Position numbers and translations under genes: made by a program. From Dictyostelium discoideum (taxonomy: Eukaryota), in the NCBI GenBank assembly GCA_000004695.1, contig CM000150.2, forward strand, positions 2,208,001 to 2,272,000: a stretch of 64,000 bases of DNA. Reading direction: 5' to 3'. The notes beneath the pieces were generated by a model, which was given only the letters and a program-made list of their open reading frames with translations, did no database searches and was not told the origin of the DNA. Positions 9,041-57,603 of the stretch are shown piece after piece. Each line of letters begins with the position of its first letter. Within the stretch, counting starts at the first letter, position 1.

Positions 9041-10019
<979 letters not shown>

Positions 10020-13087: not shown

Positions 13088-14833
13088 ATGAAATATATTT
13101 CTTTTTTTGTTACTTTAATATTAATTTCAATTTTAAATAATTTTGTTTTATCATCAGGTACAACAGTTAGTGAAGTTACATTAATAGTAAATTTAAATAA
13201 TAATAATAATTATCCAGAGAATGGAACTTGTGGTAGTACTCAATTAACATGTAATAATATAAATGATGCATTTAATTATTTTAATACAATTGCAGTTAAT
13301 GTTAATACAAGTTCACAAATCATTTATCAACAATTAAACCTTTTATTAGATGATGGTACTTATTCCATTGGAACAACAACAATTAATTTATATCAATATA
13401 ATATAACAATTTCACCATTAAATTCAGGTTCAAATAAAGTAATAATTAATAATAATAATAATTCACCAATGTTTTCTGTAATACCATTTAATAGTACTGA
13501 TGATAGTATTTGGCAAAATTCATATATTTTAATTACTGGAATTCAATTTTTAAATTTTAAACAATCAATTATTAAAGTTTCCACCATTTATTCATTTACT
13601 GATATTAAATTTCAATCATGTATTATTAATCAATATAATTCAAAAAGTTCAATTATTGAAATTAATCTATCATTTCAAGGAAGTTTACAAATTCCAAATA
13701 GTCATTTAAAAATTAATAATTCTCAAATTTCAAATATTCAAACTGATAATAATACACCATTGATTTTTGCCATTAATACTATTATTGATTTTAATCAAAA
13801 TTCAATTACAAATGCAACTGGTATTCATAGTTTTATTTCAACATCATATGGTGAATATTTAAATGTAGATTTTTCAGATTTTACAAATGTAAATAGTTCA
13901 TATGGTATTTTTGAAGTTACAAATACACATGCTTCAATTGGTGATGGTAATTACAATAATATCCAAGCAACAAGAGGTGCATCGGTTTTAACATTTACAA
14001 AAAGTGTAACTCAAGTATACTCTGCTGCTATTGCTCGTTGTAATTTCAATGGTTATAGTGGTACTAATGGTGGTGTTTTCCAAGGTTTAAATACATTAAC
14101 AAGTTTAGAAACTATTAGTTCAAGTATTTCTCAATGTACTTTTTCAAGTGGTAGTTCAAATAGTGGTGGTGCAATTTATTCAAACAATATACCACTTTCA
14201 ATTGTAAATTGTGATTTTGGTAATAATAGTGCAAGTCTTACTGGTGGATATATTTATATAAGTGGTAATTCATTATCTTTAGTAAATGTATCAATCACCA
14301 AAGCACCACTTCCTATTACTACCACTACCAATACAATAGTTGGCGATGGAATTGGTGGTTATGCTCTTTATGCTTTAAATTCAACTGTTAATATTAATAA
14401 TGGTACTTTTGGTGGTAAACTTGATTCAATCTTTTGCAATGGTTCAACAATTAATGCTGATCAATACACTACATTACAATCAGTTTATTGTAGCAATTGT
14501 AATGTAGAAGTAAGTAATAGACAAGTTTGTAATTTTGGTGGTGATTCAACTTCAACCTCAACTTCAAATTCAGGTACTGGTACTGGTACTGGCACAGGAG
14601 GAGGTATTAGCATTAGTAGTAGCAGTGGTGGTGCTAGTCAAACTCTAACTATCACCTCAACAAGTTCAACTCCTCAAACTTCTGCTTTAACTTCCAGCTC
14701 AAGCTCAGGTTCTGTTCATACTACTGTATCAACAATAACTACGACAGGTTTTACAAGCCAATCAAACCAATTTTCACCTTCTTTTTCAATTTTTATTTTT
14801 ATTTTATTACTTTTAATTTTATCGGTTCAATAA
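13088..14833 (+). CDS. Secreted, probably GPI-anchored, protein with Pmp-type (GGAI/FxxN) parallel beta-helix repeats; 581 aa; paralog A
   Basis: Single ORF with a true ATG. It has an N-terminal signal peptide (MKYISFFVTLILISILNNFVLSSG), repeated GGAIY/GGVFQG/GGYIYISGNS beta-helix-like motifs, a Ser/Thr-rich stalk, and a C-terminal hydrophobic tail (FSIFIFILLLLILSVQ). It is the tandem paralog of 15009..16754. Confidence 0.75.
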   Translation: MKYISFFVTLILISILNNFVLSSGTTVSEVTLIVNLNNNNNYPENGTCGSTQLTCNNINDAFNYFNTIAVNVNTSSQIIYQQLNLLLDDGTYSIGTTTINLYQYNITISPLNSGSNKVIINNNNNSPMFSVIPFNSTDDSIWQNSYILITGIQFLNFKQSIIKVSTIYSFTDIKFQSCIINQYNSKSSIIEINLSFQGSLQIPNSHLKINNSQISNIQTDNNTPLIFAINTIIDFNQNSITNATGIHSFISTSYGEYLNVDFSDFTNVNSSYGIFEVTNTHASIGDGNYNNIQATRGASVLTFTKSVTQVYSAAIARCNFNGYSGTNGGVFQGLNTLTSLETISSSISQCTFSSGSSNSGGAIYSNNIPLSIVNCDFGNNSASLTGGYIYISGNSLSLVNVSITKAPLPITTTTNTIVGDGIGGYALYALNSTVNINNGTFGGKLDSIFCNGSTINADQYTTLQSVYCSNCNVEVSNRQVCNFGGDSTSTSTSNSGTGTGTGTGGGISISSSSGGASQTLTITSTSSTPQTSALTSSSSSGSVHTTVSTITTTGFTSQSNQFSPSFSIFIFILLLLILSVQ

Positions 14834-15008
14834 AAAAAAAAAAAAAAAAAAATAAAATTTTTTTTGTGAAAAATCAAGTACCTATAAAATTTTTTTTGTG
14901 AAAAATAAAATACCACATTTTATCAAAAAAAAAAAATAAAAAAAAATAAAATTATGATCATTTTTTAAAGCAAAATTAAAATAAAAATATAAATAATAAA
15001 TTTTAAAA

Positions 15009-16754
15009 ATGAAATTTATTTCTTTTTTTATTACTTTAATTTTAATTTCAATTTTAAATAATTTTGTTTTATCATCAGGTACAACAGTTAGTGATGTTAC
15101 ATTAATAGTAAATTTAAATAATAATAATAGTTATCCAGTTAATGGGTCATGTGGTAGTAGTACTCAATTAACATGTAATAATATAAATGATGCAATTAAT
15201 TATTTTAATACTATTGCAGTAAATGTTAATAGAAGTTCATCACAAATCATTTATCAACAATTGAATCTTTTATTAGATGATGGTAATTATTCAACAACAG
15301 CAACAACAACAACAATTAATTTATATCAATTTAATATAACAATTTCACCATTAAATCCAAGTTCAAATAAAGTTATAATTAATGGTTTAAATTCAAATTC
15401 ATCAATGTTTTCTGTAACTCCATTTAATGGTATTGTAGATAGTAAGGGGCAAAATTCATATATTTTAATCACTGGAATTCAATTTTTAAATTTTAAACAA
15501 TCAATTATTCAAGTTTCAACCAATTATTCATTCACTGATATTAGATTTGAATCATGTATAATTGATCAATACAATTCAAATAATTCAATGATTGAAATTA
15601 ATAAATTAATTAGTCAAGATTTAATATTACCAAATAGTCATTTAAAAATTAATAATTCTCAAATTTCAAATATTCAAATTGTTAATAATGCATCATTAAT
15701 TTATGCAATTAATACAATTATTGGTATTTTTCAAACATCAGTTATCAACGCAACTAATGTTCAAAGTATTATTGAAATTTCATATGGTCAAAATTTAGAT
15801 GTTGAATATTCAGATTTCTCAAATGTGAATAGTGTTTATGGTATTTTCAATGTTTTAAATACTCAAGTCTCAATTGGTGATGGTAATTTCAATAATAACA
15901 TAGCAACAAATGGTGCATCAGTTTTAACATTTACATCAAATGTCACTAGTGTATACAATGCTGGTGTTGCTCGTTGCAATTTCAATGAGAATAGTGGTAC
16001 TGATGGTGGGGTTTTCCAAGGTGTAAATACAGATTCAAGTTTGGAAGATTACAGCTCAAGTATCACCAGTTGTACTTTTTCAGGTAGTAGTGCAAATAAT
16101 GGTGGTGCAATCTTTGTAGATAATATACCTCTTTCAATTGTTAATTGTCAATTTAGTGATGTCACTGCAAATGTTGCTGGTGCATTTGTTTATAATAGTA
16201 ATAATCATTTTGCAATGACAAATGTTACATATACTGAAAAATCATTAAATACTACAAAAACAAAAACAGCAACAACATCTGGAATTGAAGAATATGCTAT
16301 TTATATTTCAAGTTCAAGTGGTTCAATACAAAATGCTACATTTGATGATAATAGTTATTCAATTTTTTGTAATACTTCAACTGTTAAAATTGATGCAACC
16401 TCTAAGGTATCAACATTTACTTGTGCTCAGTGTAATATGGTTTTAGGTCAAAATCAAATTTGTAGTGTTGGTGGAAGTTCAGTTTCAAGCTCAACTTCTG
16501 CTTCTGGTTCAAGTTTGTCTGTAAGTAGTAGTGGTGCTCAATCATTAACTGTCACTTCAACAAGTTCAACTCCTCAAACTTCTGGTACAGGTTCAAGTTC
16601 AAGTACAAGTTCAAGTACAGGTTCAAGTACAAGTTCAAATTCTCATACTATTATTACTACCACAACAACTGGTGTATCTAATCAATTATCACCATCATTT
16701 TCAATTTTAATTTTCATTATTTTATTATCATTACTTTTAATTCAATCATTTTAA
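15009..16754 (+). CDS. Secreted, probably GPI-anchored, Pmp-repeat / beta-helix protein; 581 aa; paralog B
   Basis: Same architecture and an almost identical signal peptide (MKFISFFITLILISILNNFVLSSG). GGAIFVDN and GGVFQG repeats, a Ser/Thr-rich stalk, and a hydrophobic C-terminus (FSILIFIILLSLLLIQSF). Confidence 0.75.
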   Translation: MKFISFFITLILISILNNFVLSSGTTVSDVTLIVNLNNNNSYPVNGSCGSSTQLTCNNINDAINYFNTIAVNVNRSSSQIIYQQLNLLLDDGNYSTTATTTTINLYQFNITISPLNPSSNKVIINGLNSNSSMFSVTPFNGIVDSKGQNSYILITGIQFLNFKQSIIQVSTNYSFTDIRFESCIIDQYNSNNSMIEINKLISQDLILPNSHLKINNSQISNIQIVNNASLIYAINTIIGIFQTSVINATNVQSIIEISYGQNLDVEYSDFSNVNSVYGIFNVLNTQVSIGDGNFNNNIATNGASVLTFTSNVTSVYNAGVARCNFNENSGTDGGVFQGVNTDSSLEDYSSSITSCTFSGSSANNGGAIFVDNIPLSIVNCQFSDVTANVAGAFVYNSNNHFAMTNVTYTEKSLNTTKTKTATTSGIEEYAIYISSSSGSIQNATFDDNSYSIFCNTSTVKIDATSKVSTFTCAQCNMVLGQNQICSVGGSSVSSSTSASGSSLSVSSSGAQSLTVTSTSSTPQTSGTGSSSSTSSSTGSSTSSNSHTIITTTTTGVSNQLSPSFSILIFIILLSLLLIQSF

Positions 16755-17363
16755 CTTTTTTTTTTTTTCTTTTATCATTTTTAAAAAATAAAATTTCCAA
16801 TTCAATCAAATAATAAAGAAAATTTAAAAACTAAATAAAAATTAATTAGCATAATATTTAACCAATTTTTTATTTTTTTTTTTGTTTATTTTTGATAAGA
16901 CTTTTAAATATAAATTTTAAAAAAAAAATAATTGTGAAATTAAAACAAAATTCAAAAACAGTATAGATTAATAGGGTTGTTCGAATAATAAAAAATTTTT
17001 TTAAAAAAATTAAAAAAAAAAAAAAAAAAAAAAACCCCAAAAAATTAAAAATAAGATATTAGGGTTTTTCATGATGAAAAAACCCAATAACTTTTTTTTT
17101 TTCCAATCAATTTTTATAATATAAAAAAAAAAAAAAAACTAAAAAAATATCTTTTTTATAATAGCGCTATTATGCTTTTTTATTAAAATTAATTATTTTT
17201 TTTAATTTTTTATTACATTTTTGAAAATCAAGCAATGGCGATTTTTGGTTGGCCCCATTTCCATAAAATTTGATTTTTTTTTTTTTAATTTTTTATTACA
17301 TTTTTGGAAATCAGGCAATGGCGATTATTTTTTTTTGGTTAACCCCCTTTTTTATTTTAATCA

Positions 17364-26074: not shown

Positions 26075-26797
26075 TAGAATATAAATAAATAATATTTTAA
26101 CTTTCTAAATCTAAAATTATAACTATTAATCATTTTTAGAGTTTGAAATTATTTTTATCTTTTTATATACTTTTTTTGATTATTATTAGAGTGCTCAATT
26201 ATTTGTCTCTTCTGTCATCTGTTTTTTTCATTTTTCACTTTTTTCTTTTTTATTTAAATATAGAAAATTGTTTTTTTGTTTATCTCAATTTTTTTTTTTT
26301 TTTTTTAAAGTCAAGTGGTAATCAAGAAAAAAAATTAATTCAAGTTTAAATTGTGTCAACACTTAATAAAAATAGATTTATAGGTATTTAATTTTTAAAA
26401 ATCTTTATTTCCTGATAAACATGTACCTGTTAAACCTTAATAATTGTTGATTAAAAATCAGGTTAAATTAAAATTAAAATTATTGTTGAATGAATTTTAA
26501 ATTTTATATCTTTTTTGTGTATTGAAAAAATTTAAATCATTGTTTAAAAAAAAAAAAAAAAAAAAAAAATTAAGGCAAAATCAAAAAATTTAAATTTAAT
26601 GGTGGTATTGTTCTGATAATAAAAAGTTAAAAAAAATAAAAAAAAATAAAAAAAATAAAAACCAAAAGTCACTGTAAATGAGCAAAAAAAAAAAACCCCA
26701 ACATCTTTTTTTTTGACCTATTTTTGTTTTCCCCCACAAATAAAAATTTGTAATTTTTTTATTTTTTATCAGAGCATTTTTGGAAATCAGGTAACTG

Positions 26798-35566: not shown

Positions 35567-35980
35567 TAGAAAATAAATAAATAATATATTAACTTTCTTT
35601 ACGTCAACCAAATTCAATTTATATTTTATACAAATGTATTTTTTATATTTTATATAAAAAAAAAAAAATTATGACCATTAATTATTTTAGAGTTTGTAAT
35701 TCTTTTTATTATCCTATTTTTATAATGAATTTGTTTCTGAATGAAACAATCGGTGATGGATTTAACCATACATTTGATTCAAATAAATTAGAAAATACAA
35801 TAATTAAATAAAAATAAATATATAAAAAAATTGTGTGCTTTTTTATTTTTTTTTTTTTTTTTTTTTTACATTATTGGAAATGAGGCAATAAAACCCCATT
35901 TGAATTAATTTTTTTTTTTTTTTTATTTTTGAGAATCTGGCAATTGAGATTTAACCCCCTTTTTTATTTATAATTTATCT

Positions 35981-36140: not shown

Positions 36141-39100
36141 ATGCCCAAAACTAAAGATCAAAGACTCAAAGTATCTCATTCTTTAAGAAATAATCTTCTA
36201 AACTATCCAGTAAGTTCAAATAAATTTAAATTTTTTTTTTAAATTAAATTCTTTTTTTTTTATTTTTTTTACAAACACAAAAATTGTTTTTTTTTTTTTT
36301 TTTTTATGCTGACATGAAAAATATAATGATATTAATAAATTATAAAAAAAATATATGATAGGAATCAAAAATAGTTAGAGAGTTGATTCAAAATGCAGAA
36401 GATGCTCTAGCTGATACATTCATAATAAAGGTTGATGAAGGCTCATATCCAAATAATGGGTTATTAATTTCAAATGATAACCAAGAAATTGAAAGTTCAA
36501 AAGAATTATTAGGTCCATCAATTTTAATTTATAATAATGCAACTTTTCATGAACAGGATTGGGAAGGCATTTGTGAAATTAATCAAGGTAGTAAAAAAGA
36601 AAATTTAAAAAGTGTTGGCAATTTCGGTTTAGGTTTGTACTTTTTATTTTTTAAAAAAAAAAAATATATACATCTTATTCTAATTTTATTAATTCTTAAA
36701 ATAGGTTGGAACAGTGTTTATCATATAACAGATAATCCAATTGTTTATAGTGGTAATAATGTTTGGTTTGCAGATCCAAATGAAAGAATTGGTGGTGGTT
36801 TATTCTTTGATTTGGACGATGAAGATGATTATAACAAATGTTTTAGTTTTTTAGAGCCATTCATTCAATTCAAAGAATCAAATTGTAACCCAAAAGAATA
36901 TTTTAATGGTACAATCATTCGTCTACCATTGAGAATATATCCAAGTGAAATCAAAAAAGCTGTATTAACAATGGATGCCATAAAGAAAATTTTAAATGAA
37001 TTTTCAAAAGATATCAATGAAATATTGATTTTCTTAAAGAGTTTAGCATCAATTACCATCATTGTTAATAATCAGATAGTCAACTCTGTAAAAATAAAAA
37101 ATTATTCCAAAATTAAAGATCAAAGAGAAAAGGTATCTTTATTCTTATCAAAAATTGTAGATAATGAAATGAACAATCCAAGTAGTGCTGTAGAATTAGC
37201 TGAAATTTTATGCAGTAATAAATCACAATCAAATTGTGAATCTACATTTCAAATTGATTTAGAAATTTATAGAAATGGTGTCAGTCAATTAATTTCATAC
37301 TTGGTTTCGCAAGGTATCTATATTGATAGGAAATTAATTGAATTAGTTAAAAAGAATAAAGAAATCAAACTCATATCATATGGTGGTGTAGCAGTTCCAA
37401 TCAGTTTAGATAGTTCAATAAATTTCAAAGGTAAACCATTTACATTTTTACCAATTGGAGCATTAGTTTATGATATTCCTTTACATGTCAATGGTTACTT
37501 TAGATTAAGTAATGCAAGAGATAATATCATTTATTCGTTAACTGAAGTTGAAGAAGCATCTGAATCATTATCAAAACAATGGAATAAGTTTATATCAGAA
37601 ACTATTATTCCTTATTTCTATGTTAAATCGTTGGAATATTTAAAATCAAATTATCTTGTCAAACTATACAATTATTTCCCATACAAATGTAACAATGAAA
37701 ATTATCAAGGTCAAAGCCCAGCATATGATATATCAATCACTACAATGAAATCAATTATCGGTGGTAAATACTTTTTAAATTACTTCAATTCCCATGAATA
37801 TTTACCATTGATAGGTAGTTTAATCATTTCAAGTTCAGATATACCACCAGATTTCGTTTTAACCATCATTCGTGAACGTAACATTAAAACAATCTTTTTA
37901 TCAAATGAATTATTAAACCATTTTAATAATTTAAGAATTTCTTTACTTTGTTATTCTAAACAATATTTATGTAGTCTATTAGTTTCATCACCATTAAAAC
38001 AATACTCTGAAGATGTTATCAATTACATTTGTTGCACTGAAATCATTGAAGGTGGTCATTTAAATATGGTCAATATTTTACCAACAAATTCAAATAATAT
38101 TACATTAGATTGTTTAAAATCAACTCAAACACTCCCATATTTCCCATGCCAAAATTACCATAGTAATTTCGGCAGCCATATTAATTTTGGCATGGGACAC
38201 TCATATATAAATATAAATCAATTCCTTTACATGAGTGATCAAGTCTATGATCTCTTATTCAGGTACCATGGCCAAAGCTTGACCTTCCATTTAAAAATAT
38301 CAACAATGCCACCAAACTTTAGAAAATTTATTTCAGCAATTTGTAGAAAATATTGGAATATTGGAGAAATTAAACTTTCAAATTTTCTCACTAGTCTCAA
38401 ATCTTTAAGCAACAAATTTTTAAAAGAACATATAATAACAGTTTGGGGTTGTATCGATGAATTAGGCATAAATGAAACTTTAGAATTATCAAAAATTAGA
38501 TCCATACCTATTGTTCCATATAGATCGAGTCCAACTCAGACTGATGTCACTAGTTATGATAAATCTTCATTGTTAATGTACAGATCAAAACTCTTGCCAA
38601 TTGAACCAATATTAAACAAATTAAATATATATATAATAGAGGAAGAACATCAATTCAATAATTTATTACATGCAACGGCTTATATTTCAAAATTGTTAAA
38701 TTATCTTAAAAATGTAGATTTATCATTAGATTCAGATGAAATTGATAAATTAAGAATTTTTTTAGTCGAATCGATTCACCAAGCCTCTATTGCCGATATT
38801 TCAATTTTTTATAATTTACCAATTCACCCATGCATTGGAAACAGTGATCAAAAGTTTAGTAGTATAACTAATAATAGCATATGTGTGGATTATGAAAAAA
38901 TTGATCAATATGAAATTAAAGGATTGAAATTAATAAAGGTTAATGAATTATCAAAATATAAAAGAATTGTCGACTATATACCAACAAAACAAATTTTAAT
39001 AGGAGAAAAACAGGTTTATAGGTATTATTTAATTCAAAATATTAGTTCCTTTGAATTAAATGTTTCAATTGAAATTATTACAGAATTTTTAACTCTTTAT

Positions 39101-42100
39101 GGTAATCATTATATCAATGATGGTGCATTAAGAAAATTTAAATTTATTCCATCTGAAAATGATGTTTATTCAACTCCTGATTCATTTTATGTTTTAAGTC
39201 AACTCGAAAGGGATTTAATAAGAAATTTCGAACCATCTAAAATTTTAAATCAATCTTTGGATGGTTTAACTGGTTATTTATCTAAATTTGGCTTAAAATT
39301 TAAACCATCAGATAAACATATATGTTCAAAGGTTATTGATTTTCTTTCAAATCAAGATTCAATAGAAACCTATCAAACTTTTATGGATTATTTAAATCAA
39401 AGAGGTGAGAATATTGGTGATTCATTAATTGATTCTTTCAAAGATATCCCATTTATTCCATCCAGTGAATTCGATACCTATGATGGATTTGGCTCAAATG
39501 AATCTAAAATTTCTTTATCAGAGTGTGCATTATCAAGTTATAAAGATTGTTTATTCACTGTAAAAACTCCAATTAAAGTAATCAAAAATTACAAAAACCC
39601 CATTAACAAATACCTATCATCAAATTTAAATGATAACATTATTCAGCATTTGATTAATTTAAATTCTATGGAATTCAATGATGAAACATCATTCGATCCA
39701 AATATAATTTTCAACAATACCTATAAAAGAATTGATGATTTAATTAAAACTTCCAAACTAAATGATGAACAAAAAAAGAAAATCTCTCAAATTCAATTAA
39801 TTTGGTTAGATGGCCAATTAGTACCAAAAGAAAAAATATTTTATAATAGTCCAAACCCAAATTTAGATTTTAAACCTTACTTTTTTATCACCAAACCTAC
39901 ACAAGAACATCTCTTTAAATTTTTAAAATTAAAAGAAATACCAGATTTAAATGATTTCATTAGATTAATCAAATCTATTCAAGATACATATGATAAAGAG
40001 AGCTCAAATTCAATAGATTTATTTGAATTGGTTATTTATTCTCTCCAAAACCCTGCATTCAATAAAGAATTACTTATTGATTCAAAAATAAAATTACCAA
40101 CCACTGATAATCAATTTGTTGAATTTGAAAAAGTAATTTACATTGATCATTCATGTTTACCTCAAGAATTCATTGATTTAGGACACAGTGCATTACATAA
40201 TAAAATTTCTGAAAACACTGCATCAAAACTCAGTATTACAAAACTTTCTCAATTGATTCAAAGTCAAGTAGCATTTGAGAATTCATTTGGACAAAAAGAA
40301 GAATTAGTCGATCGTTTGAAACAAATTTTACGTGATTATAAAGTAGAAGTATTTTTAAACGAAATGGTTCAAGTATGTATTATCTTTCAAATTATTGATT
40401 TAATCATTACTCTTTTTTTTTTGAAATTGTACTAATTTTTTTTATTTTTTTTTAGAATGCTCATGATGCTGGATCAACAGAAGTAAAATTAATTTTAGAT
40501 TGTAATTCTTTAAAACAACAATTTTTAAAAGAAAATCCAGAGATAAGTACACTATGTAAAGATCTTCCATCATACTTTGAAAGTTCTTTACTTTTTTATA
40601 ATAATTCAGTTTTTACAGAAAAAGATATTAAAAATGTTCAAGTAATGTCAGCATCAATTAAAAAACAAGATGAAAATTCTATTGGTCAACATGGTTTAGG
40701 TATTAATTCTATGTATTCATTCAGTGATTGTCCATGTATATTAAGTGGTGAATATTTGATGATTTTCGATCCATTCGTAACACATATCGGTCAATCAATA
40801 AACTATTCACATGGTGCTAAATATAAAATTTCAGAATACAAAACATTTTTAAAATACTTTAAACCATTTCAACATTTACAATCAATTTTAGGTTTTGATT
40901 TAGATGATGGTAAATTTAATGGAACAATCATTCGTTTACCACTTCGTAAAACATTAAATGATGATCGTTTTATTAGTCCACAGAAATGGAACGAAGTAAA
41001 TGTTTTAGATTATTTAAAAAGAGTAAAAGCAAGTAATTTAGAAAATTTAATGTTTTTCACCAACATAGATTCTTTAGAGGTTTCAATATTACCAGTGGGA
41101 AGTAAAAAATTAGAACAACAAATTTCAATTCATAAAGAATCAAGTTTATCATTAATTACAAACCAATATAATAATTTAATGAATATTCCAACACAAGCAT
41201 CAGAATATACATTCACTATTATTCCATCAGAGAAATCAAAGATAACTGAAAAATATATTATAGGTCAAGTAATTGAAGAAGATTTCAAAGATCTATCAGA
41301 ATATCCAGATAATAAAGCATTGAAATTTTTATCAATCTATAATAATGAAAAAAGAAAACCAGTTGGAGGTGTCGCATTTAAATTAATAGATTTCTCACTT
41401 CCTGAATACAATTTCACACCAAAATCATTTTGTTTCTTGCCATATAAAGATTTAATTTCAAATATTCCAGTTCACATTCATGCAAACTTTTCAACAACAA
41501 GTTCACGTGATATTTTAGAAAATGTCAAATCTTCAAATTTATATAATATTGAAGAGATACTCTCTAAAAAGGATAATCAAGTAATACAAACAGATAGTTT
41601 ACAACTTTGTTGGAATCAATTAATTGTAACTGAAATTATAGCACCACTCTACATTAATACATTAACTCTTTTCAAAAACAAATATATTAAAGGTAATGAT
41701 ATAGATATAATTTCAAAATATCATGATTTCTATTACTCTCGTTTCCCAGTATTAAGTGATTCGTTGTCAAATCATTCAATTCTCGAAATGTTAGCAAATA
41801 AGTTTTACTCATTATTAGATTCAGATGTATTCATCCATTACCCTGGGGTTGAAATTAAAAAGAATCATAAAGATACATTTTATGCAGAGTTGAGTTTTTT
41901 ATCAAATTCTTGTTCAGTTTCAATACTAAAGTGTATTAGTCACATTGGTTTCAATGTTAAGGTTATTCCGTTTAAAATTTTTTTTAGTTTTAAGTCACTA
42001 CCAAACTGGTTAACAGAATATACAATATCAATGGCCTTGAAAGGAGAGGATTTAAATCCTCAAGTAATAAATACTCAAGATATTGCAAATTTAATATTAT

Positions 42101-44535
42101 ATCTCTCAAAAATGCCAGAATATCTAGATAACTGCCAAGTATTGATTTTCAATGATAAAACAAGGGATTTTCTAAATATTGAAAACAAAATAATAAACCA
42201 ACTATATAACCAAACTCATTATGAAATGACTCAAGATGTTTTAGATTTAAAATTCATTGATAGAGAACTTACCGATATTATCAAAATGCTTTTAGATCCT
42301 CTCATTTTGGATTCACTTAAAACGATTAACATCTTTGATTTCAACTATGTATGTATTCATATATCATATTAATATTTTTTTAATTATACATTAACATTTT
42401 TTTTACAAAACTAGGTTGATTTTTATTTCCACTATCTCTTACCAAATTTCAATATATTATCAGCTGAAAAAAATATTTCATTTTTAAACAAATTATTGGA
42501 ATGCTTTACATTTGAAAAGAACTCTGATTTTAAATCAATCAACCATCCTCTAATATCTAAAGAAAGAATTAAAATACTAAAAGGTTCAAAAGTTTTTCCT
42601 TTTGTTAAAAACGGTATTCGAGAGTTTACTTTAATTTCAAAATTATTCAATCCAACATTTAAACAACATGATTTCATATTAGATTATCCAGATTTATATC
42701 ATTCAAAAGAAAATATTGAAATATTTAGATATTTAGGTATCAGAGATAAATTAAAGAAAAACGATATTGTAAATCAATTCAAAAAGATCTCATCAGAAGT
42801 TTATAGTGAAAATACACCTTTGAGCATTTTAATTGAAAGAGCACGTCTATTATGGAAATCAGAAAAATGTGTCAAAGTATTTAATGAATTGTTAGAATTA
42901 AATATTGTACCAGTCAAAGAAAGTAATATCATTGGCAGTAGAAAAATATCATTAGGATTGATGCCAACTACCGAAGTATGCCAACATCGCTATGAAGATC
43001 TTTATTTTTCAGTAAAACTACTTCAAGATGTAGATATTAAATACCCACCAGGATATAATCAAATTGATTGTGAAAAAATATTTGAAAATTTCGTTAATCT
43101 TCTTACAAACATCAGAGATTGGAAATTGATTCAAGTAAATGGTAATTTAGTTACAGACCCCAAAATCATACAAATGTTAATATCGATGTGTAGTCATTTG
43201 GAAAACTATACAGGAAATTTCTCATCAGAACTTGTAGAAAGAATTCAACGTATCCCAGTATTAAACTCTACAATATCTATTGAATTTACAAATATAGTCA
43301 TGGGAACTGATGCAAATAATTTGAAACCATTTTTCAATATTTTACCTCCAAATTTTTCAACTTTTAGACATTTTTTCAGTAAAATTGGTGTAATAGAATT
43401 AAATCTAAACACAATTGTAATGGGATTAAATAGATTTTTACATGATGAGATTAATACTACCGAAGGAATTAGATCGTTAAACTATCTTTATGAATTATTA
43501 TTTAGTTTTGGTAGAGAATTGGAAACATTTAAAAATGAACACTCACCATTACCAGTTTTCACTAAAAAAGGATTTATAAAACCATCGAATCAAGTTTATT
43601 TATTCGATGGTGTACCCATTAAAAGAATTAATACTACATCGTTTTATGAAATCCATGATTCAATTAGAGATAATTATGAACAATTGGGTGTTTTACAATT
43701 ATCTTCAGTTTTAAGAGAAGAATTAGACAATGAACTCACCAACCTTGAAAATGAAGATTTGGAGAATTCAATTGGAAAGTTTTTAAATACCCTTATCAAA
43801 GAAAATCAAGAATTTATTTCAAGAGTAAATCATCTTCAGTTAAGCGGAATCTTGAATATTACAGTTAAAACAGGATATATTAGAACTAAATTCATTTTTA
43901 ATCGAAAAGATATCACTAAAACCTCAAAAACCAAATGCTTTTATGATCATTTAAATTCAACTCTTTATATAGGCATAGAAAAAGGTATTACCATAAGTAA
44001 AGCATTCAAATACCTATTTAACTCCACTGGTTTGAATGTAAACCCCTCAATGGTATCAAATCTAAAAAGAGAGTTTGTTAATGATGAACCAACTGATGAT
44101 AATTTATTCTTGACTCTAAACGTTGTTAATTTTGTTGATGTTAACCAAACAAAAATCCAAAAAAATCAATGTAGACACTACAACACCATTGCATTAAGAA
44201 ATTTTCAACTTGCTGATACTTTACTCAACAATCAATCATTTATAAGAGAAGCCTCATACCATTACTATGTTTCAACAGAAATGTCAATGAGAAGTCTTTT
44301 GGTTTTTAATTATAATGATATCCCCTATGCTTTTTCAATTACTCGTTTAAGAGGTTTATTATCTAGAATAAGTATTACAACTGAAACCATACCACAGATT
44401 CCAGATCTTTACAATAATTACAGACACACTCATTTAAAAAATGAAGAAATCAATCGTAGGGAACTATTAAGATTTCGTTCAATTTCAAATCAATTATTAA
44501 ACATCTCTAATCAAAAACTAAATGAAAATATATAA
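36141..44535 (+). CDS. Sacsin-like giant protein, copy 3 (~2673 aa, 5 exons), the most divergent copy
   Basis: Exons: 36141..36209, 36362..36632, 36705..40372, 40456..42348, 42415..44535. Intron 2 (36633..36704) is 72 nt and stop-free, which is why the track ORF 36383..40435 reads through it. Exon 1 is diverged (MPKTKDQRLKVSHSLRNNLLNYP), there is a 54-bp insertion with an inverted repeat in exon 3, and the C-terminal ~150 aa differ. Confidence 0.78.
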
Positions 44536-44671
44536 ATAATAATAAAAATAATAATTTAATTTTTAAATTTAATAAATGTGTATTTATTTATTTTTTTTTT
44601 TTTATTATTATTTTTTTTTTTTTTTTTGAAAAAATAATAGGAATAAAATATAAACTACCTATATAAATTTT

Positions 44672-44862: not shown

Positions 44863-46746
44863 TTAAAATGATTTATCTTTACAAATACAAATTCTTGAAG
44901 CTTCGGATTTCTTTGGAGGTTTTGAAGTACAACTTAATTTACTATATTGATTTGTAGTCCAACAAATGCCATCTTTATCTTTGATTGGATAAAATGTATC
45001 GGTATTATTACTTGGTATATAGTTTACTTGACTACAATGTTGTTCCAATTGTAGTAAAACTATAGTACTATCAGTTAATAACATCATATCAGATTCTAAA
45101 CATGATACTTTATGTTTTTCACAAAAGTCTTTACAAGAGAAAACTTTTTCAGCCAAAGTAATATCCAATGAGAGATCTTTATCAGTTCTAAATAGCATAG
45201 TACTTGTTAAAGGATTTGTGATGGTTGGATCAAATTCTTCCTTTGGAAAATCATTGAAAAGTATACGTTGACTTTTATTTCTTTGTTGTTGACTATAGAA
45301 TGGTGAATAGGTACCAACCAAATAAACTCTTTTGCCAAAGAAAGTGGTCTCAATAACACCTTTATAGATACCTCTAACAGCGCCACCATTGCCTCTACCA
45401 ACCATTTGAAGTTTATCGATAACTGCATCCCATCTTGGATCGTCATTTGATTTTGCTGGTACATAATAAACGAATCTATTTGAAGTTGAGAACATCATTG
45501 GTATTGAATTTAAAGTATCAACTTCGGTGGCTCTCATAATACGTTTCTTTACTTGAAGATCGTATTCGGGTGAGAGATATTTTGAAAGATTCATATGATA
45601 GGTATGAATGGTGGTAATCTTTGGAAGATAGAAATTATAATTACCCCAACCATCTTTCTCTGGTTGATCTTTGAAGATTGAATCATAGTTTCGTTCTAAT
45701 AATGGAGCATGTTGCGAACGTGGAATCTCTGGAAAAATACAAGAATCACCAGAACGCATTGATTGTTGAACTATAACATCCCATGGTGTAGTTGATTCGA
45801 TTTGCCAATTTGGTTCAATACGTTTTTTATAGATTTCTCTTGAGATTAGGAAACCAAGTCCACCGAAATGATCTTGACGAAGGAATGAGAACTTATTCTC
45901 AAAGTTTGATCTTGATTGCTCAACATTCCATTTGAAACCATTATCATTCCATGCAGAAATACCAAATATGCTTGGATCATAATTCATCAACTTTGAAAGA
46001 TGATTAAAATACTCCAATGAATCTGGTGACATAATTAAATCCTCTTCTAAAAAGATAACTTTATCACTGGTTTCATTATTAAACATAAATGAAAAGATTT
46101 CTTTATAATGTGAATTCATATAGTATTGTTTCTCTTCATTTGATAACACTTGATTGGAATTTGAACCCTCTTGAGATTTCTTTGAAATACGATACTCTTT
46201 GGTTACATTATACTTTGATAATATATTTTGAACTGATTTACCATCATTGAAAACTTTAATTCTATCAATGTTTGCATTACAATTATTGATTAGATTTGCA
46301 AGTAAACGATCTAAATGTTTTGGTTTATTTGATGTCACAATTGCAATGGGTGGATGATCATATAACCTATCAAGATTAGCTGTGATATCAGAGTTCTTTT
46401 TAATTCTAAATTTTCTAACTCTTTCATTGTCTGGTCTAATTTCATCTAACCATTTAACTTTATATAAATCTGATTCAATGGTTGCGTTATTTAATTTCAT
46501 ATTCTCTTTAATTGTTTTAGTTAATTGACTATCACTCCATTCTGCTCTCTGTTGTTGTTGTTGTTGTTGTGGTTGTTGACCTTTATTATTATTATTACCT
46601 CCAACTACACCACCAACACCTCTTTGAGATCTCTCTCTAAAATTCTCTTCATCACTTGAAAAAATGAAATAAAATATGAGTAAAATAAAAACAGCTCCAA
46701 ATATTAACCTCTTTTTATTCGTAATTAAATTTTTACTATCAATTAT

Positions 46747-46749
<3 letters not shown>
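44863..46749 (-). CDS. GT13-family glycosyltransferase (GlcNAc-transferase I / MGAT1-like), type II membrane protein, ~628 aa
   Basis: Single exon. The real ATG is at 46749 (MIIDSKNLITNKKRLIFGAVFILLIFYFIFSS is a signal anchor). The track ORF start at 46881 merely runs through the upstream poly-T. GnT-I catalytic motifs: DHPPIAIVTSNKPKHLDRLL, VIFLEEDLIMSPDSLEYF, FGISAWNDNGF, DHFGGLGFLISREIY..IEPNW, SCIFPEIPRSQH. A C-terminal Cys-containing extension is present. Confidence 0.8.
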
Positions 46750-50755: not shown

Positions 50756-52867
50756 ATGAATCAAAATTTTGGGTTTAAACTTTTTTTCCTTTTTTTCTTT
50801 TTTTATTTTTTTTTTGGTATAAATTGTTCTCAACAACAACAAAAACAAGAACTTCAAAATAAAAATTATAATAATATTTTAAATTATTTAAATGAAACTT
50901 TTAATAATAATAATAATAATAATGATAAAAGTAATATAAATAATAATTTAAATAATAATAATAATATTAAATTATGGGTATTTTTTAATTCAAAAGAAAT
51001 AATAAAAGTTAATAATAATAATCATAATGATATTAAATTAAAAATTGGTATTAATAATGAATCAATAAAAAGAAGATCAAAATTATTAAAAAAACAAATT
51101 ATAGATGATACAGATTTACCAGTTTCAGAAAATTATATAAATCAAATTTTACAATGTAATAATAAAATTGTTAAACTTGGATATAAATCGAATTGGTTAA
51201 ATTCAATTTCAATTTCACTTTTATTTGATGATACAGATAAAGTTTCATCAGCATCCTCATCTTTTTCACCATTGTCTAGAATTGAAATTATTGAAAATAT
51301 TACAAAATGTATAGTTTTGAAACCATTTGTTGAAAAGATTGATATTGTTTCAAAATTAAAAAAAGTTAAAGAATCAGAGACAGTTACACCAACACCACCA
51401 TTGGAGAGTACTTCAGTTAATGAAACATTTTATGGTAAATCAGCAGATGGTATTAAACAGATATCAATGGATAAATTGATAGAGATGGGATTGGATGGTA
51501 GTGGGGTTGTAATATTAATAATTGATGATGGATTCTATAAGGATCATCAGTGTTTTAAAAAATTAAGGATTCTTGGTGAACTAAATTTGGATCAACAATC
51601 TCCCCATATGAATGATACACAAGATAGACCAATGATGGAGGAAGACCATGATCATGGTACTGCAACACTATCAGTTTTATCATGCGATATGCCAGGTGTG
51701 ATGATTGGTGGAGCACGTAATGCATCCTATCTATTGGCAAGAATAACGATATTCGATGAAATCGATAGTTACATTGAAGAGGACCAATGGGTAGTAGCAT
51801 TGGAATGGGGTGAAAAAATGGGTGCTGATTTAGTTTCATCATCTCTTAGTTATTTATTATCTTTCAATTACAGCTTTGCCGGATTGGATGGTAAAACCTC
51901 TCACACAACAATTGCAACCAATTTGGCAAGTTCCAAAGGTGTACTTATTGTAAATAGTATGGGTAATAATGATTTTAGTATATATGGTGCACCAAATGAT
52001 GGTGAAAATGTCATATCGGTAGGTGCTGTAGATAGAAGGGGTAATATGGCATACTTTTCATCTATTGGTCCAACTGCAGATGGTAGAATCAAACCTGATA
52101 CCCTAGCATTGGGAATTGATATCTATGTAGCATCCATTAGTGGTCCTTCAAATTTCACTCGTATGAGCGGAACATCATTCTCTTGTCCATTGGTCGCTTC
52201 TGCAATTGCATTACTAATGCAAGCTAAACCCAATTGGACTTCAACACAACTTCACGAGGCAGTTATTGATTCTTGCGAATGGTCAATTTATCCACATTAT
52301 TACATGGGTTGGGGTATTTTTAATGTATCGAAAGCATTATCATATAAACCAATTCCAATGAATAATACTTGTTTTAATAATTGTAATTCAAGTGGTTTAT
52401 GTTGTAAAATTTCAAATAACAATTTTAATAATAATAATAATAGTTTATCCACACATTCAACATCCTCATCATCAATATCTCAACAAAATTATTTTAATTC
52501 ATGTAATTGTGCAAATGCATATTATGGTAGATATTGTCAATATAAAAGGATAGAATGTGGTTATCGTTGTAAATATGATTTTCTAGGTGAAACAAAATGT
52601 CAAAAAAATAATTTTAATGATAAAATTTCATTTAGGTGTATAAAATCATCACAATATAATAATTCAATTGTAAATTTTGACCCATATAAAATTCCAACCA
52701 CTTGTAAAATTATTGGTGATACTCGTCCTAATCAAAATAAATTTATTAATGACGATAATGATAATGATGATAATAATAATTCTTCAAATAATAACAATAA
52801 TAATAATTTCAATTTATTTAATAATTATTTATTTAAATTATTTATTTTAATTTTAATTTTAATTTAA
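50756..52867 (+). CDS. Secreted subtilisin-like serine protease (S8 family) with a C-terminal Cys-rich, EGF-like module; 703 aa; paralog A
   Basis: Signal peptide plus an N-terminal pro-region. Catalytic triad in the canonical Asp-His-Ser order of contexts: VVILIIDDGF (Asp), HDHGTATLS (His), GTSFSCPLVASAIALL (Ser), with the oxyanion Asn in MGNND. C-terminal module with a poly-Asn linker (CNCANAYYGRYCQYKRIECGYRCKYDF...C) and a hydrophobic tail. Confidence 0.85.
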   Translation: MNQNFGFKLFFLFFFFYFFFGINCSQQQQKQELQNKNYNNILNYLNETFNNNNNNNDKSNINNNLNNNNNIKLWVFFNSKEIIKVNNNNHNDIKLKIGINNESIKRRSKLLKKQIIDDTDLPVSENYINQILQCNNKIVKLGYKSNWLNSISISLLFDDTDKVSSASSSFSPLSRIEIIENITKCIVLKPFVEKIDIVSKLKKVKESETVTPTPPLESTSVNETFYGKSADGIKQISMDKLIEMGLDGSGVVILIIDDGFYKDHQCFKKLRILGELNLDQQSPHMNDTQDRPMMEEDHDHGTATLSVLSCDMPGVMIGGARNASYLLARITIFDEIDSYIEEDQWVVALEWGEKMGADLVSSSLSYLLSFNYSFAGLDGKTSHTTIATNLASSKGVLIVNSMGNNDFSIYGAPNDGENVISVGAVDRRGNMAYFSSIGPTADGRIKPDTLALGIDIYVASISGPSNFTRMSGTSFSCPLVASAIALLMQAKPNWTSTQLHEAVIDSCEWSIYPHYYMGWGIFNVSKALSYKPIPMNNTCFNNCNSSGLCCKISNNNFNNNNNSLSTHSTSSSSISQQNYFNSCNCANAYYGRYCQYKRIECGYRCKYDFLGETKCQKNNFNDKISFRCIKSSQYNNSIVNFDPYKIPTTCKIIGDTRPNQNKFINDDNDNDDNNNSSNNNNNNNFNLFNNYLFKLFILILILI

Positions 52868-52958
52868 TATTGCAATAATATAATTAATAATAATAATAAT
52901 TTATTTATATAAAATTAATATAAATAAATAAATATATAAATATATTAAATATATATCT

Positions 52959-52995
<37 letters not shown>

Positions 52996-53573
52996 ATTGA
53001 AAAAAAAAAAAAAAAAAAAAAAAAAAATTATTTTAAAGACACACCACGATACATCATCAAATTACAAATTTTTTTTATTATAAATTAAAAATTTTTTATT
53101 TTTTAAATAATTAAAAAAATGCTATGTTAATTTTTTTTTATATAAATTTATATATATAATTAAATACCCTTTTTTGTCATACCATTGTTTTTTTTATTAT
53201 TTTTTTTAATAATTTTGATAATCTATTAATAGTATTAAAATTAAATAGTTCTATTTTTAGAAATTTTTGTATGTTTGGGATTATAGTGAGTGTTTTATAT
53301 GTGAATTTAAAAAAAACCCCTCTTTTTTTCAAAATCAAATATACGCAGACAAACATTTGTTTTTTTAATTATATTTTATTTTTTTTTATTTTTTATTTTT
53401 TTTTTTTTATTTATTCAAATATTTCTTTTCTATTTTATTACTTCGTATAAAAAAAAAAAACAAAAAAAAAAACCAATTATTAAATTCCATCATTGCAAAT
53501 ATTTATAAAAAATATATATTAAAAATATAATTTTATAATAATAAACAATTATTGTTTTAAAAAAAAAAAAAAG

Positions 53574-53617
<44 letters not shown>

Positions 53618-53645
53618 AATAAATAAATAATTAAAATTTAATAAA

Positions 53646-55586
53646 ATGAAAATAAATTATATTTTATTATTAATTTTATTATTAATTAAATTAATAAACT
53701 CTTTTAATTATGAATTTGATGGCAAATATAAAATTTCAGAAAAATTAACTGACCATTTAATAAATAATCAAGATGAAGAAAATATTAAAATTTGGGTTAC
53801 TTTTAATTCAAAAAAAAAAGAAAATTTTTATAATATCGAAGAGTTTTCAAAAAACAATGGATTAAAAAAAGAATCAATAGAAAGAAGAATCAATAGATGT
53901 CATGATAAAAATAAAATTATTGATGATAGTGATATTATAATTAATCAAGATTTTATAAATCAAGTTTTAACCTGTGGTAATGAAAATACAATTAAATTAA
54001 TTCAAAAATCAAATTGGTTAAATTCAATCTCAATCTCACTTTTAAAAGAAACTTCAAATAAATTAATTGATTGTATAAAATCATTAGAATTTGTTGAAAC
54101 TGTAGATTTAGTTACAAAATTTAAAAAGAAAACAACGACAACAACAACAACTAAACCATTATCATCATCATCTAATGAATTTAATGGTTGTTTAAAAAAT
54201 GATGAAGATAATTCAAAATTTGAAAAAGAATTTAATAATTTAATTGAAAAGAAATTATTAGATTTAAAAAATAAATTATATTCATCATCAGCATCAGCAT
54301 CAGCATCAGCATCATCTTCTGATTCATATTTCAATGAAATTCCTGATAAATATTATGGTTATTCAAATACTGGATTGAGACAAATTAATGTTGATAAATT
54401 ACATGAAATGGGATATGATGGTTTTGGAATTAAAATTTTAATAACAGATACTGGTTATAGAAAATCTCATGAGGTTTTTAAACATATGAAAATTATTGGT
54501 GAATATAATTTCTTAAAGAATAAAAATAATACACAAGATGATTTTGATCCATTTTTTAAAGATGTAAATGAACAACAAACTGGCCATGGCACATTTACAT
54601 TATCAACTTTGGGTGGTTATAGACCTGGTGTTTTAATAGGTGCAGCATATAATGCATCATTTTTATTAGCTGAAACTGAAAATGCTACAAGTGATTTCCC
54701 ATTGGAGGAAGATAATTGGATTGCAGCTATTGAATGGGGTGAAAGCCATGGAGCTCAATTAGTATCCTCTTCATTGGGTTACGAAAATTGGTATACCTAT
54801 GCAAATAAGGATGGTCATTTTTCAAAAATTTCAAGAGTGGCAACAATGGCAGTTAATAAAGGAATGGTGGTAGTAATGGGTGTTGGTAATTCTGGTGATT
54901 TGGGTATGGGAATACCTGCAGATGCAGAATACGTTATATCAGTGGGTGCAATTGATTCAAATGGAGAAAGAACTGAATTCTCTTCAATTGGGCCCACTGC
55001 TGATGGGAGAATAAAACCAGAGGTAATGGCATTGGGACTTGGTAATTTAGTTGCACATAATTTAAACGATACCACCTATGATCGATTTGATGGCACAAGT
55101 TTCTCTTGCCCATTGGTAGCATCTGGTATAGCATTATTAATGCAGGCTCATCCAAATTGGTCACCAAAACAAATTTATGAAGCTGTGATTAGTAGTGCTT
55201 CAAAATCTAAATCACCAGATTATTTAATGGGTTTTGGTATTTTTAATGCCCTAAAAGCATATGAACACAATCCAACAAATTCATCCGATTGTACAATTAA
55301 TGGAATTGGCTGTTCAAATTCAAATGGTAGATGTAATTTACAATCAAAGCAATGTCAATGTGAATTACCATTTTATGGACAGTTTTGCCAATACAATAGA
55401 ATTCCTTGTGGTCAAAGATGTTTATTTTTAAATTCAACTTGTGGAATTCCTTCTAATAATTTTAATGTATCATTTACATGTATTGAACCAAACATTGGTG
55501 ATTTTTCAAATCAATCTCCAAAATTAAATAACAACAATTTTTATAAATCATTATTTATAATATTTTTATTTTTTATTTCAATTTAA
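53646..55586 (+). CDS. Secreted subtilisin-like serine protease (S8) with a Cys-rich C-terminal module; 646 aa; paralog B
   Basis: Same domain order: ILITDTGY (Asp), QTGHGTFTLS (His), GTSFSCPLVASGIALLMQAHPNW (Ser), then a Cys module (CSNSNGRCNLQSKQCQCELPFYGQFCQYNRIPCGQRC) and a hydrophobic C-terminus. Confidence 0.85.
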   Translation: MKINYILLLILLLIKLINSFNYEFDGKYKISEKLTDHLINNQDEENIKIWVTFNSKKKENFYNIEEFSKNNGLKKESIERRINRCHDKNKIIDDSDIIINQDFINQVLTCGNENTIKLIQKSNWLNSISISLLKETSNKLIDCIKSLEFVETVDLVTKFKKKTTTTTTTKPLSSSSNEFNGCLKNDEDNSKFEKEFNNLIEKKLLDLKNKLYSSSASASASASSSDSYFNEIPDKYYGYSNTGLRQINVDKLHEMGYDGFGIKILITDTGYRKSHEVFKHMKIIGEYNFLKNKNNTQDDFDPFFKDVNEQQTGHGTFTLSTLGGYRPGVLIGAAYNASFLLAETENATSDFPLEEDNWIAAIEWGESHGAQLVSSSLGYENWYTYANKDGHFSKISRVATMAVNKGMVVVMGVGNSGDLGMGIPADAEYVISVGAIDSNGERTEFSSIGPTADGRIKPEVMALGLGNLVAHNLNDTTYDRFDGTSFSCPLVASGIALLMQAHPNWSPKQIYEAVISSASKSKSPDYLMGFGIFNALKAYEHNPTNSSDCTINGIGCSNSNGRCNLQSKQCQCELPFYGQFCQYNRIPCGQRCLFLNSTCGIPSNNFNVSFTCIEPNIGDFSNQSPKLNNNNFYKSLFIIFLFFISI

Positions 55587-57503: not shown

Positions 57504-57531
57504 TTGGCCATTCTTTCGAATTCTTAAAAAG

Positions 57532-57603
57532 CTCCCTGTCCGGGAATTGAACCCGGGCCTTTCGCGTGACAGGCGAAAATCCTCACCACTAGACCAACAA
57601 GGA
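57532..57603 (-). tRNA. tRNA-Asp (anticodon GUC), 72 nt
   Basis: Minus-strand sequence TCCTTGTTGGTCTAGTGGTGAGGATTTTCGCCTGTCACGCGAAAGGCCCGGGTTCAATTCCCGGACAGGGAG folds as a cloverleaf. The 7-bp acceptor stem has one G-U pair. Anticodon stem TTCGC/GCGAA with loop CTGTCAC. T stem CCGGG/CCCGG with loop TTCAATT. Discriminator G. Confidence 0.9.

Follow-up and report, generated by a model that had tools for sequence, protein, structure and literature searches.

A 60-nt inverted-repeat unit, a candidate miniature transposable element, inserted in frame into an exon of a sacsin-like gene of Dictyostelium discoideum

The second exon of one sacsin-like gene of Dictyostelium discoideum carries an in-frame insertion of 66 nt, made up of a 60-nt inverted-repeat unit and a 6-nt duplication of the target, and a related copy of the same unit is found at a non-homologous site in another strain, ACTFIR. 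The gene is the third of three tandem copies (copies 1 to 3) in a 64,000-nt stretch of D. discoideum DNA (the window: GenBank assembly GCA_000004695.1, contig CM000150.2, positions 2,208,001 to 2,272,000 of the forward strand), which is strain AX4 or indistinguishable from it. Comparison of the two copies suggests that what was inserted was a pre-existing 60-nt unit and not a hairpin made on the spot. As to what the unit is, the leading reading, which we consider about evenly balanced, is that a very small element resembling MITEs (miniature inverted-repeat transposable elements) inserted in frame into the copy 3 exon in the lineage leading to AX4.

The original prediction had described the feature as an insertion specific to copy 3, bounded by arms of 15 nt on either side of a 24-nt spacer. 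Direct reading bears out the arms, the spacer and their coordinates (Table 1), as well as the perfect 16-bp stem that forms once the flanking T38142 and A38197 are included. If one mismatch (T38141/C38198) is tolerated, the arms reach 18 nt, with 17/18 positions paired. We scanned the 64-kb window for inverted repeats with perfect arms of at least 14 nt, a loop of at most 60 nt and at least three G/C per arm, and the repeat at 38142-38197 was the only one to pass; in 200 composition-preserving shuffles of the window an arm of at least 16 nt with at least three G/C arose once (mean 0.005 per window). The predicted single-stranded DNA fold of the region reaches -14.8 kcal/mol (z = -4.9), a stability matched by none of 200 shuffles, and the arms have no other match in the window beyond chance expectation, even with mismatches allowed. 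The unit also has internal structure. Its core opens with the first member of an 18-nt tandem pair (CCATAGTAATTTCGGCAG, 38158-38175), the second member of which (CCATATTAATTTTGGCAT, 38176-38193; 15/18 identical to the first) reaches into the right arm, and the first 17 nt of the core (38158-38174) form with the left arm a nested near-palindrome at 38147-38174 (24/28, blastn). Translation confirms that the insertion is in frame and stop-free: the frame runs open through it as ...TL PYFPCQNYHSNFGSHINFGMGH SY....

While the insertion had originally been given as 54 nt long, its actual length is 66 nt. We measured the distance between two conserved anchors across the homologues obtained, and all distances are multiples of three: 213 nt in AX4 copy 3 versus 150 and 153 nt in AX4 copies 1 and 2, with 153, 147 and 147 nt in three copies of D. 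discoideum ACTFIR and, in one copy each, 153 nt in D. discoideum ACTFIW, 147 nt in cf. discoideum ACTFIZ, 159 nt in cf. discoideum ACTFIY, 147 nt in D. citrinum, 138 nt in D. dimigraforme and 138 nt in D. firmibasis. The 147-nt ACTFIR copies, the flanks of which are most like those of copy 3, read ...CAAACTCTC / TCATATATAAATATAAATCAATTCC, and relative to these the gain is 66 nt. Alignment of the three AX4 copies around the insertion shows that copies 1 and 2 lack it, as predicted, and so do the nine other copies sampled, those of ACTFIR, ACTFIW, ACTFIZ and ACTFIY among them; it is absent from a total of 11 other distinct gene copies, drawn from eight genomes and six named or provisional taxa. 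Its absence from all 11 shows that the insertion arose as a derived feature of AX4 copy 3 alone and is not ancestral; the palindrome is not an old sequence that copies 1 and 2 have deleted.

At 66 nt the insertion dwarfs every other coding indel between the three AX4 copies, the others being of 3-12 nt. Its G+C content is 39% versus 26% for the gene, 9/22 of its codons end in G or C versus a background of 17% (P = 0.007), and the rare codons GGC (twice), AGC and TGC occur in it: the insert does not look shaped as Dictyostelium coding DNA. The surrounding patch tolerates length change, and the 74 nt next to the insert have a dN/dS of ~1, although the counts are small. There is no GT at or near the 5' boundary of the insert, and the sole GTAAT...CAG pair spans 13 nt. 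An introner (an intron-generating MITE) was considered and rejected, as suitable GT...AG splice sites are missing and the reading frame is kept open. When 1.84 billion representatives were searched with HMMER for the 36-aa insertion peptide, the one match was spurious and repetitive. In a protein word index, an 83-aa query around the insertion found no candidate, even though protein P0002 matches it exactly over long segments, a negative that carries no weight since the index is clearly incomplete here; a 500-aa query found three fragmentary models from other strains, the AX4 sacsin proteins being missed by the incomplete index. The paired arms and 21- and 24-mers of the unit were not found in prokaryote genomes and metagenomes, collections that include no Dictyostelium genome, and these empty scans argue weakly against capture of prey DNA. 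AlphaFold modelling of a 380-aa fragment around the insertion with a 5-row alignment was unusable (pLDDT 34.5), and we make no structural claim.

The main evidence on the origin of the insertion comes from its second copy. A sensitive blastn search with the 66 nt against 240 kb of Dictyostelium DNA returned one significant match outside the site itself, in ACTFIR (L001:9703-9745; 39/43 identical, E = 9e-12). The full ACTFIR copy is 58 nt long (L001:9692-9749; TGTCACATTCCAAATTA, then CAATATTAATTTCAGCTGCCATAT, then TAATTTTGGCATGTACA) and is identical to the AX4 unit in 50/60 aligned columns (83%; nhmmer E = 1e-17 and 9e-14). The two copies have the layout of arm, 24-nt core and arm in common, their cores being 20/24 identical, and the ACTFIR arms (9692-9708 / 9733-9749) pair at 15/17 with two 1-nt bulges. 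Furthermore, the ACTFIR copy holds the same internal 18-19-nt tandem pair (CAATATTAATTTCAGCTG / CCATATTAATTTTGGCATG), and therefore the tandem repeat and the nested near-palindrome arrived with the unit and were not formed in the exon. The similarity between the AX4 and ACTFIR copies reaches precisely as far as the inverted repeat itself (TTT...ACA in AX4, TGT...ACA in ACTFIR), and nothing aligns past its outer ends. The ACTFIR copy lies in an intergenic spacer of the sacsin array, 250-310 nt upstream of the ATG of an array member, at a site non-homologous to the AX4 exon site. A two-copy nhmmer profile detected no third copy in the 240 kb, and the arms occur there only at the AX4 site and in the one related copy, so that they are not a common simple sequence. 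Rfam gave no match to the ACTFIR spacer.

The boundaries drawn from the ACTFIR homology fall just where the inverted repeat terminates on either side and delimit the 60-nt unit in AX4. Once occupied, as in AX4, the site has the sequence ACACT-CCCATA-(unit)-CTCATA-TATAAAT; two ACTFIR copies provide the empty form, ACACT/AACT-CTCATA-TATAAAT, in which CTCATA occurs once; the 60-nt unit and the 6-nt duplication sum to 66 nt, an exact match to the gain in length. The ACTFIR copy is flanked by TGCAAC/TACAAC, a 5/6 match, and the empirical chance of a match of at least 5/6 at these fixed boundaries in ACTFIR is 0.003-0.016. An earlier reading, with a flanking duplication of 12-14 nt, was replaced since the ACTFIR copy shows that TGT/ACA belong to the unit.

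Table 1. Positions of the inverted-repeat unit, its parts and the features around it; positions are those of the window unless a locus is named.
Feature	Position	Strand	Basis or remark
Host gene, sacsin-like copy 3 (~2650 aa, several short introns)	36141..44535	+	Start codon, open reading frames (ORFs), Pfam, gene models
Net insertion, 66 nt, 22 codons, encoding PYFPCQNYHSNFGSHINFGMGH	38135..38200	+	Anchor-to-anchor length versus closest alleles
Left duplicated target, CCCATA, one T>C versus ancestral CTCATA	38134..38139	+	Empty sites
60-nt inverted-repeat unit, candidate miniature element: TTTCCCATGCCAAAATTA, 24-nt core, TAATTTTGGCATGGGACA	38140..38199	+	Homology to L001:9692-9749
Left arm, 18 nt (perfect part 38142-38157)	38140..38157	+	Sequence, repeat scan, blastn
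Left arm, 15 nt: CCCATGCCAAAATTA	38143..38157	+	Read from sequence
Core (spacer), 24 nt: ccatagtaatttcggcagccatat	38158..38181	+	Read from sequence
Right arm, 15 nt: TAATTTTGGCATGGG	38182..38196	+	Read from sequence
Right arm, 18 nt (perfect part 38182-38197), ending ...ACA	38182..38199	+	Sequence, repeat scan, blastn
Right duplicated target, CTCATA, running into ancestral TATAAATATAAATCAATTCC	38200..38205	+	Empty sites
Conserved blocks upstream of array members	35849-35896; 26755-26794; 17279-17319; L001 9768-9815; L002 8558-8597		Spacers otherwise unalignable

The inverted-repeat ends, the short flanking duplications at two independent, non-homologous sites, the precise empty site and the presence or absence of the unit between strains make up, when combined, the classical signature of a small non-autonomous transposon having inserted. 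The element would be 58-60 bp long, with ends of the TG...CA type, terminal inverted repeats of 17-18 bp and a core of 24 bp. A staggered cut at CTCATA followed by fill-in would have produced the 6-bp duplication, and a later T>C change would have turned the left target copy from CTCATA into CCCATA. With 60 + 6 = 66, a multiple of three, and a stop-free frame, the reading frame would have survived, and the element would now be translated as 22 extra amino acids in a weakly constrained, length-tolerant patch; by our own rough estimate, the chance of an in-frame, stop-free insertion at such composition is ~0.08. We infer movement by a transposase, the identity of that transposase (see below) and the neutrality of the extra peptide. 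Two sources had originally been proposed for the insertion, of which the transposon-like one gains support, the arms, the core and the target duplication all being in place, and the other, hairpin-mediated template switching, fails as the origin. Nor is the insertion the footprint of an excision, as had also been suggested: both complete arms and the 24-nt core remain and match the full-length copy over 58-60 nt.

Compared to MITEs, including those exonised in frame, the unit is similar in having terminal inverted repeats at the ends of both copies, no coding capacity and a short target duplication flanking the ends, seen at both copies and with a single CTCATA at the AX4-type empty sites. It is similar also in being present or absent between close genomes, with a precise empty site, and in having a second copy at a non-homologous site. 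It differs in that only two copies are seen in the 240 kb, one in an exon and one in a spacer of a single gene array, in that the target duplications are imperfect, and in that no matching autonomous element was identified. Were the unit indeed such an element, the insertion would provide a clean, datable, one-step passage of mobile sequence into coding sequence, with empty sites, target duplication and sister copy all known, and a very small non-autonomous family would be added to the Dictyostelium repeat catalogue.

For the transposase, the analogy that we can offer is with TDD-4 and TDD-5, cut-and-paste elements of D. discoideum that have TG...CA (TGTNR) ends (PMC2836005). Their target duplications are of 5 bp, those of other Ginger2 elements being of 4 bp (PMC2836005), and elsewhere the Ginger2 target duplication is given as 6 bp (PMC6839031). 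Common to these elements and our unit are the host species, a short target duplication of a few bp and the TG...CA-type ends, which the unit shows at 3/4 termini, the ACTFIR start TGTCA fitting TGTNR. However, TDD-4 and TDD-5 are ~3.8 kb long with inverted repeats of 260-297 bp, and their RTATAY target preference is not seen here; the link to TDD-4/TDD-5 (Ginger2) is only a lead. Carried to its full extent, and put forward here tentatively, it would make the unit a member of an undescribed D. discoideum family of 58-60 bp TG...CA elements, moved in trans by an integrase-type transposase such as that of TDD-4/5 and active recently enough for laboratory and wild strains to differ, one member of which added 22 residues to a fast-evolving, copy-number-variable sacsin-like protein. 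A literature search for sequence strings, gene identifiers and Dictyostelium transposon ends gave nothing usable. As a separate observation, D. dimigraforme has, close to the syntenic locus, part of a gene with integrase H2C2 and rve domains (L008 1-696, minus strand); it is a retroelement or an integrase-type transposon, truncated where the locus ends.

Several observations weigh against a transposed element. Both copies sit in one gene array, in different strains, and local copying would give the same picture. MITEs usually measure 100-600 bp, and 58-60 bp would be exceptionally short for one; the copy count covers 240 kb. The flanking repeats are imperfect (5/6) at both sites or, alternatively, perfect over 4 nt with a 2-nt offset, so the true length of the target duplication could be 4-6 bp; as read here it is 6 bp versus 5 bp for TDD-4/TDD-5 (PMC2836005). 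The full TGTNR motif occurs at 1/4 ends (TGTCA... ...GTACA in ACTFIR, TTTCC... ...GGACA in AX4), the AX4 left end being TT and not TG. The left arm can also be aligned so that AX4 CCCATGC is matched to a CCCATGC immediately beyond the ACTFIR unit, at the price of a 13-nt gap, which would blur the unit boundaries; under ordinary gap costs this alignment scores lower. Finally, the empty site of the ACTFIR copy was not found, the surrounding ~170 nt being without a clear homologue in other spacers.

The confinement of both copies to one array is what an ectopic templated insertion would lead one to expect, and we regard this, the main rival, as a possible, if rather doubtful, explanation. At a break or stalled fork in the exon, repair or replication synthesis would have switched to a quasi-palindrome in the array's own promoter-proximal spacer, located either in cis, ~2.4 kb upstream, or in a sister or neighbouring copy, and copied ~60 nt from it by microhomology-mediated break-induced replication or fork stalling and template switching (MMBIR/FoSTeS), synthesis-dependent strand annealing (SDSA) or a process of the polymerase-theta type; synthesis would then have returned 6 nt behind its exit point, duplicating CTCATA, and the AX4 spacer copy would later have been lost by array turnover. 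The sole other copy does lie in a spacer of the same array in another strain, few coding sequences come closer to AX4 copy 3 around the site than that of the ACTFIR copy downstream of it (92-94%), and both copies have the same orientation relative to the gene. The array is moreover a mosaic of frequent conversion and unequal exchange, so its spacers turn over and a donor could be lost. As matters stand, the donor is absent from all three AX4 spacers in the window, and the copied segment would need to have started and ended exactly at the inverted-repeat ends of the donor, with the 5/6 flanking repeat at the ACTFIR copy left unexplained. Three bases, ACA, occur both where the unit ends and in the target AACACTC and could have served as return microhomology, but a return at ACA requires an extra 2-nt deletion, and microhomology at the left junction is at most 2 nt (0-3 nt over the junctions).

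Known filler insertions made by polymerase-theta end joining or synthesis-dependent microhomology-mediated end joining (SD-MMEJ) similarly copy tens of bases from elsewhere and leave small junction duplications (PMC4912351, PMC5728401, PMC5068794), and components of the pathway are present in Dictyostelium: D. discoideum possesses PolQ and ligase III, components of alternative non-homologous end joining (PMC8529158), which counts in favour of templated copying. However, filler insertions usually take their templates from no more than tens of bases away from the break, whereas the only known relative here is kilobases off and in another strain, and the copied block is here a complete inverted-repeat unit. 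If the unit was copied in this manner, an exon received promoter-spacer DNA from its own tandem array.

That the hairpin arose in place, one arm being copied from the other in the exon by template switching or snap-back synthesis, is in our view very unlikely. The AX4 arms do pair better than those of ACTFIR (16/16 in the inner part and 17/18 overall versus 15/17 with two 1-nt bulges). Furthermore, one position differs between the AX4 and ACTFIR copies on both arms by a complementary change, which fits template-switch homogenisation, a known process in coding DNA (PMC8604942, PMC8794818); the same complementary change would also be expected from two subfamilies of an element. Template-switch mutations and quasi-palindrome correction (PMC5453318, PMC8794818, PMC8604942) make or perfect inverted repeats inside genes, and the more perfect AX4 arms, with their coordinated change, resemble their products. 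Such events, however, copy adjacent pre-existing sequence, and the site held nothing of the unit beforehand: neither an arm nor the core is present at any empty site, so there is no local template, and no donor lies within the window. The complete unit, internal tandem pair included, exists elsewhere, 83% identical, in ACTFIR. When we sought to derive the insert from its own flanks or from the homologous patches of other copies, nothing scored above shuffles, except for a 13-mer in D. firmibasis. Template switching may have polished the arms as a later step, not as the origin.

The least probable alternative, and one that we hardly entertain, is that the unit is ancestral and was deleted from all other copies, or that it is an assembly or cloning artefact of AX4. 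The D. firmibasis patch does contain CCAAAATTAATAT, the reverse complement of 38178-38190 (13/13; shuffle p = 0.003 for the single comparison), and the AX4 lineage is represented by one assembly in the comparison; but the 13-mer is in the opposite orientation and borderline after correction for 24 comparisons, the sequence is missing from the more closely related copies (the remaining ones of D. discoideum and those of cf. discoideum, D. citrinum and D. dimigraforme), so that many independent losses would be needed, and an artefact would not be expected to show exact frame, a target duplication and a match to an independent long-read assembly of another strain. The 13-mer itself lies on the minus strand of L003, in the patch at 3448-3585 (reverse-complement coordinates); closer relatives are without it.

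The insertion mechanism had also been proposed as the source of the diversification of the region. In the variable region (38061-39400), dS is 0.32 versus 0.09 in the flanks and dN/dS is 0.6-0.7 versus 0.45-0.5; between copies 1 and 3, dS and dN are 0.33 and 0.19 in the hypervariable stretch and 0.09 and 0.04 upstream of it. Because dS is raised alongside dN, the stretch looks like older, un-homogenised sequence under weak constraint and not like the product of hairpin-driven or targeted hypermutation. No other G/C-containing perfect inverted repeat of at least 12 nt occurs in the variable region of any sacsin-like copy sampled; a scan of the eight loci outside the window gave only two single 12-nt pairs, at chance level and elsewhere in L002 and L006. 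The proposed link to diversification is thus not sustained. Whether the unit was transposed or copied, the palindrome accounts for one length change and not for the hypervariability of the region, which looks like the outcome of weak constraint and patchy gene conversion among array members.

The closest relative of AX4 copy 3 switches every few hundred bases, and conversion tracts therefore make the array a mosaic. Towards its 3' end (44000-44560), copy 3 shares only 72-82% identity with copies 1/2 but 94-97% with the copies that come last in ACTFIR and ACTFIW. The number of sacsin-like copies varies at one syntenic locus, flanked by a 581-aa gene pair and the GlcNAc-transferase gene (17700-44560 in the window; L001-L008): D. 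firmibasis, D. citrinum, D. dimigraforme and cf. discoideum ACTFIZ have a single copy each, ACTFIY and ACTFIW have at least two, AX4 has three, and ACTFIR has at least four, one of these being broken into several gene calls.

The spacers of the array have features of their own. Conserved G/C-containing blocks, CATTTTTGGAAATCAGGCAATAA..ACCCCATTT and then a second, ATTTTTGGAAATCTGGCAA..AACCCCCTTTT, lie upstream of every array member and probably act as promoter elements. In ACTFIR the unit is located 18 nt upstream of the first of these blocks. Directly 5' of it lie ~90 nt of relatively G/C-rich sequence (L001 9600-9691) with the internal repeats TGGTGAAA and TTTTTTCCCC(A/T)AC; these have no homologue in any other spacer compared and could be part of a larger insertion. 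An origin of the ACTFIR left arm from ancestral promoter sequence was also considered and rejected, as its alignments to other spacers are at noise level. A likeness of the arm to the sacsin start codon region (ATGCCAAAATT, D. firmibasis) is an 11-mer at chance level and was likewise discarded.

The window is very A+T-rich (G+C ~23%). Its assignment rests on a GlcNAc-transferase gene at 44863-46749 (minus strand), the protein of which is 628/628 identical to XP_647017.1, and on 581-aa ORFs at 13088 and 15009, which match DDB_G0268844 and DDB_G0268846 exactly. Between the 581-aa gene pair and the GlcNAc-transferase gene lie the three tandem units, each of 9-9.5 kb and coding for a ~2650-aa protein with Sacsin domains (PF25794). 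The start codon of copy 3 is at 36141 (context ATGCCCAAAAC), and its large ORFs, at 36383-40435, 40645-42372 and 42496-44535, have a layout that parallels copies 1 and 2; the Pfam Sacsin domain PF25794 is detected in it with E values of 5e-42 and 2e-38, and gene models at the same position in other genomes are of 2647-2655 aa. A tRNA-Asp (GTC) gene at 57531-57603 (minus strand) is the sole Rfam or ARAGORN match in the window. The array itself is flanked by tandem pairs, the 581-aa paralogues DDB_G0268844/DDB_G0268846 upstream (13088-16754) and ORFs of 703 and 646 aa downstream (50756-55586), the latter corresponding in position to a peptidase S8 gene pair called in L004-L006, and the region around the array seems generally prone to tandem duplication.

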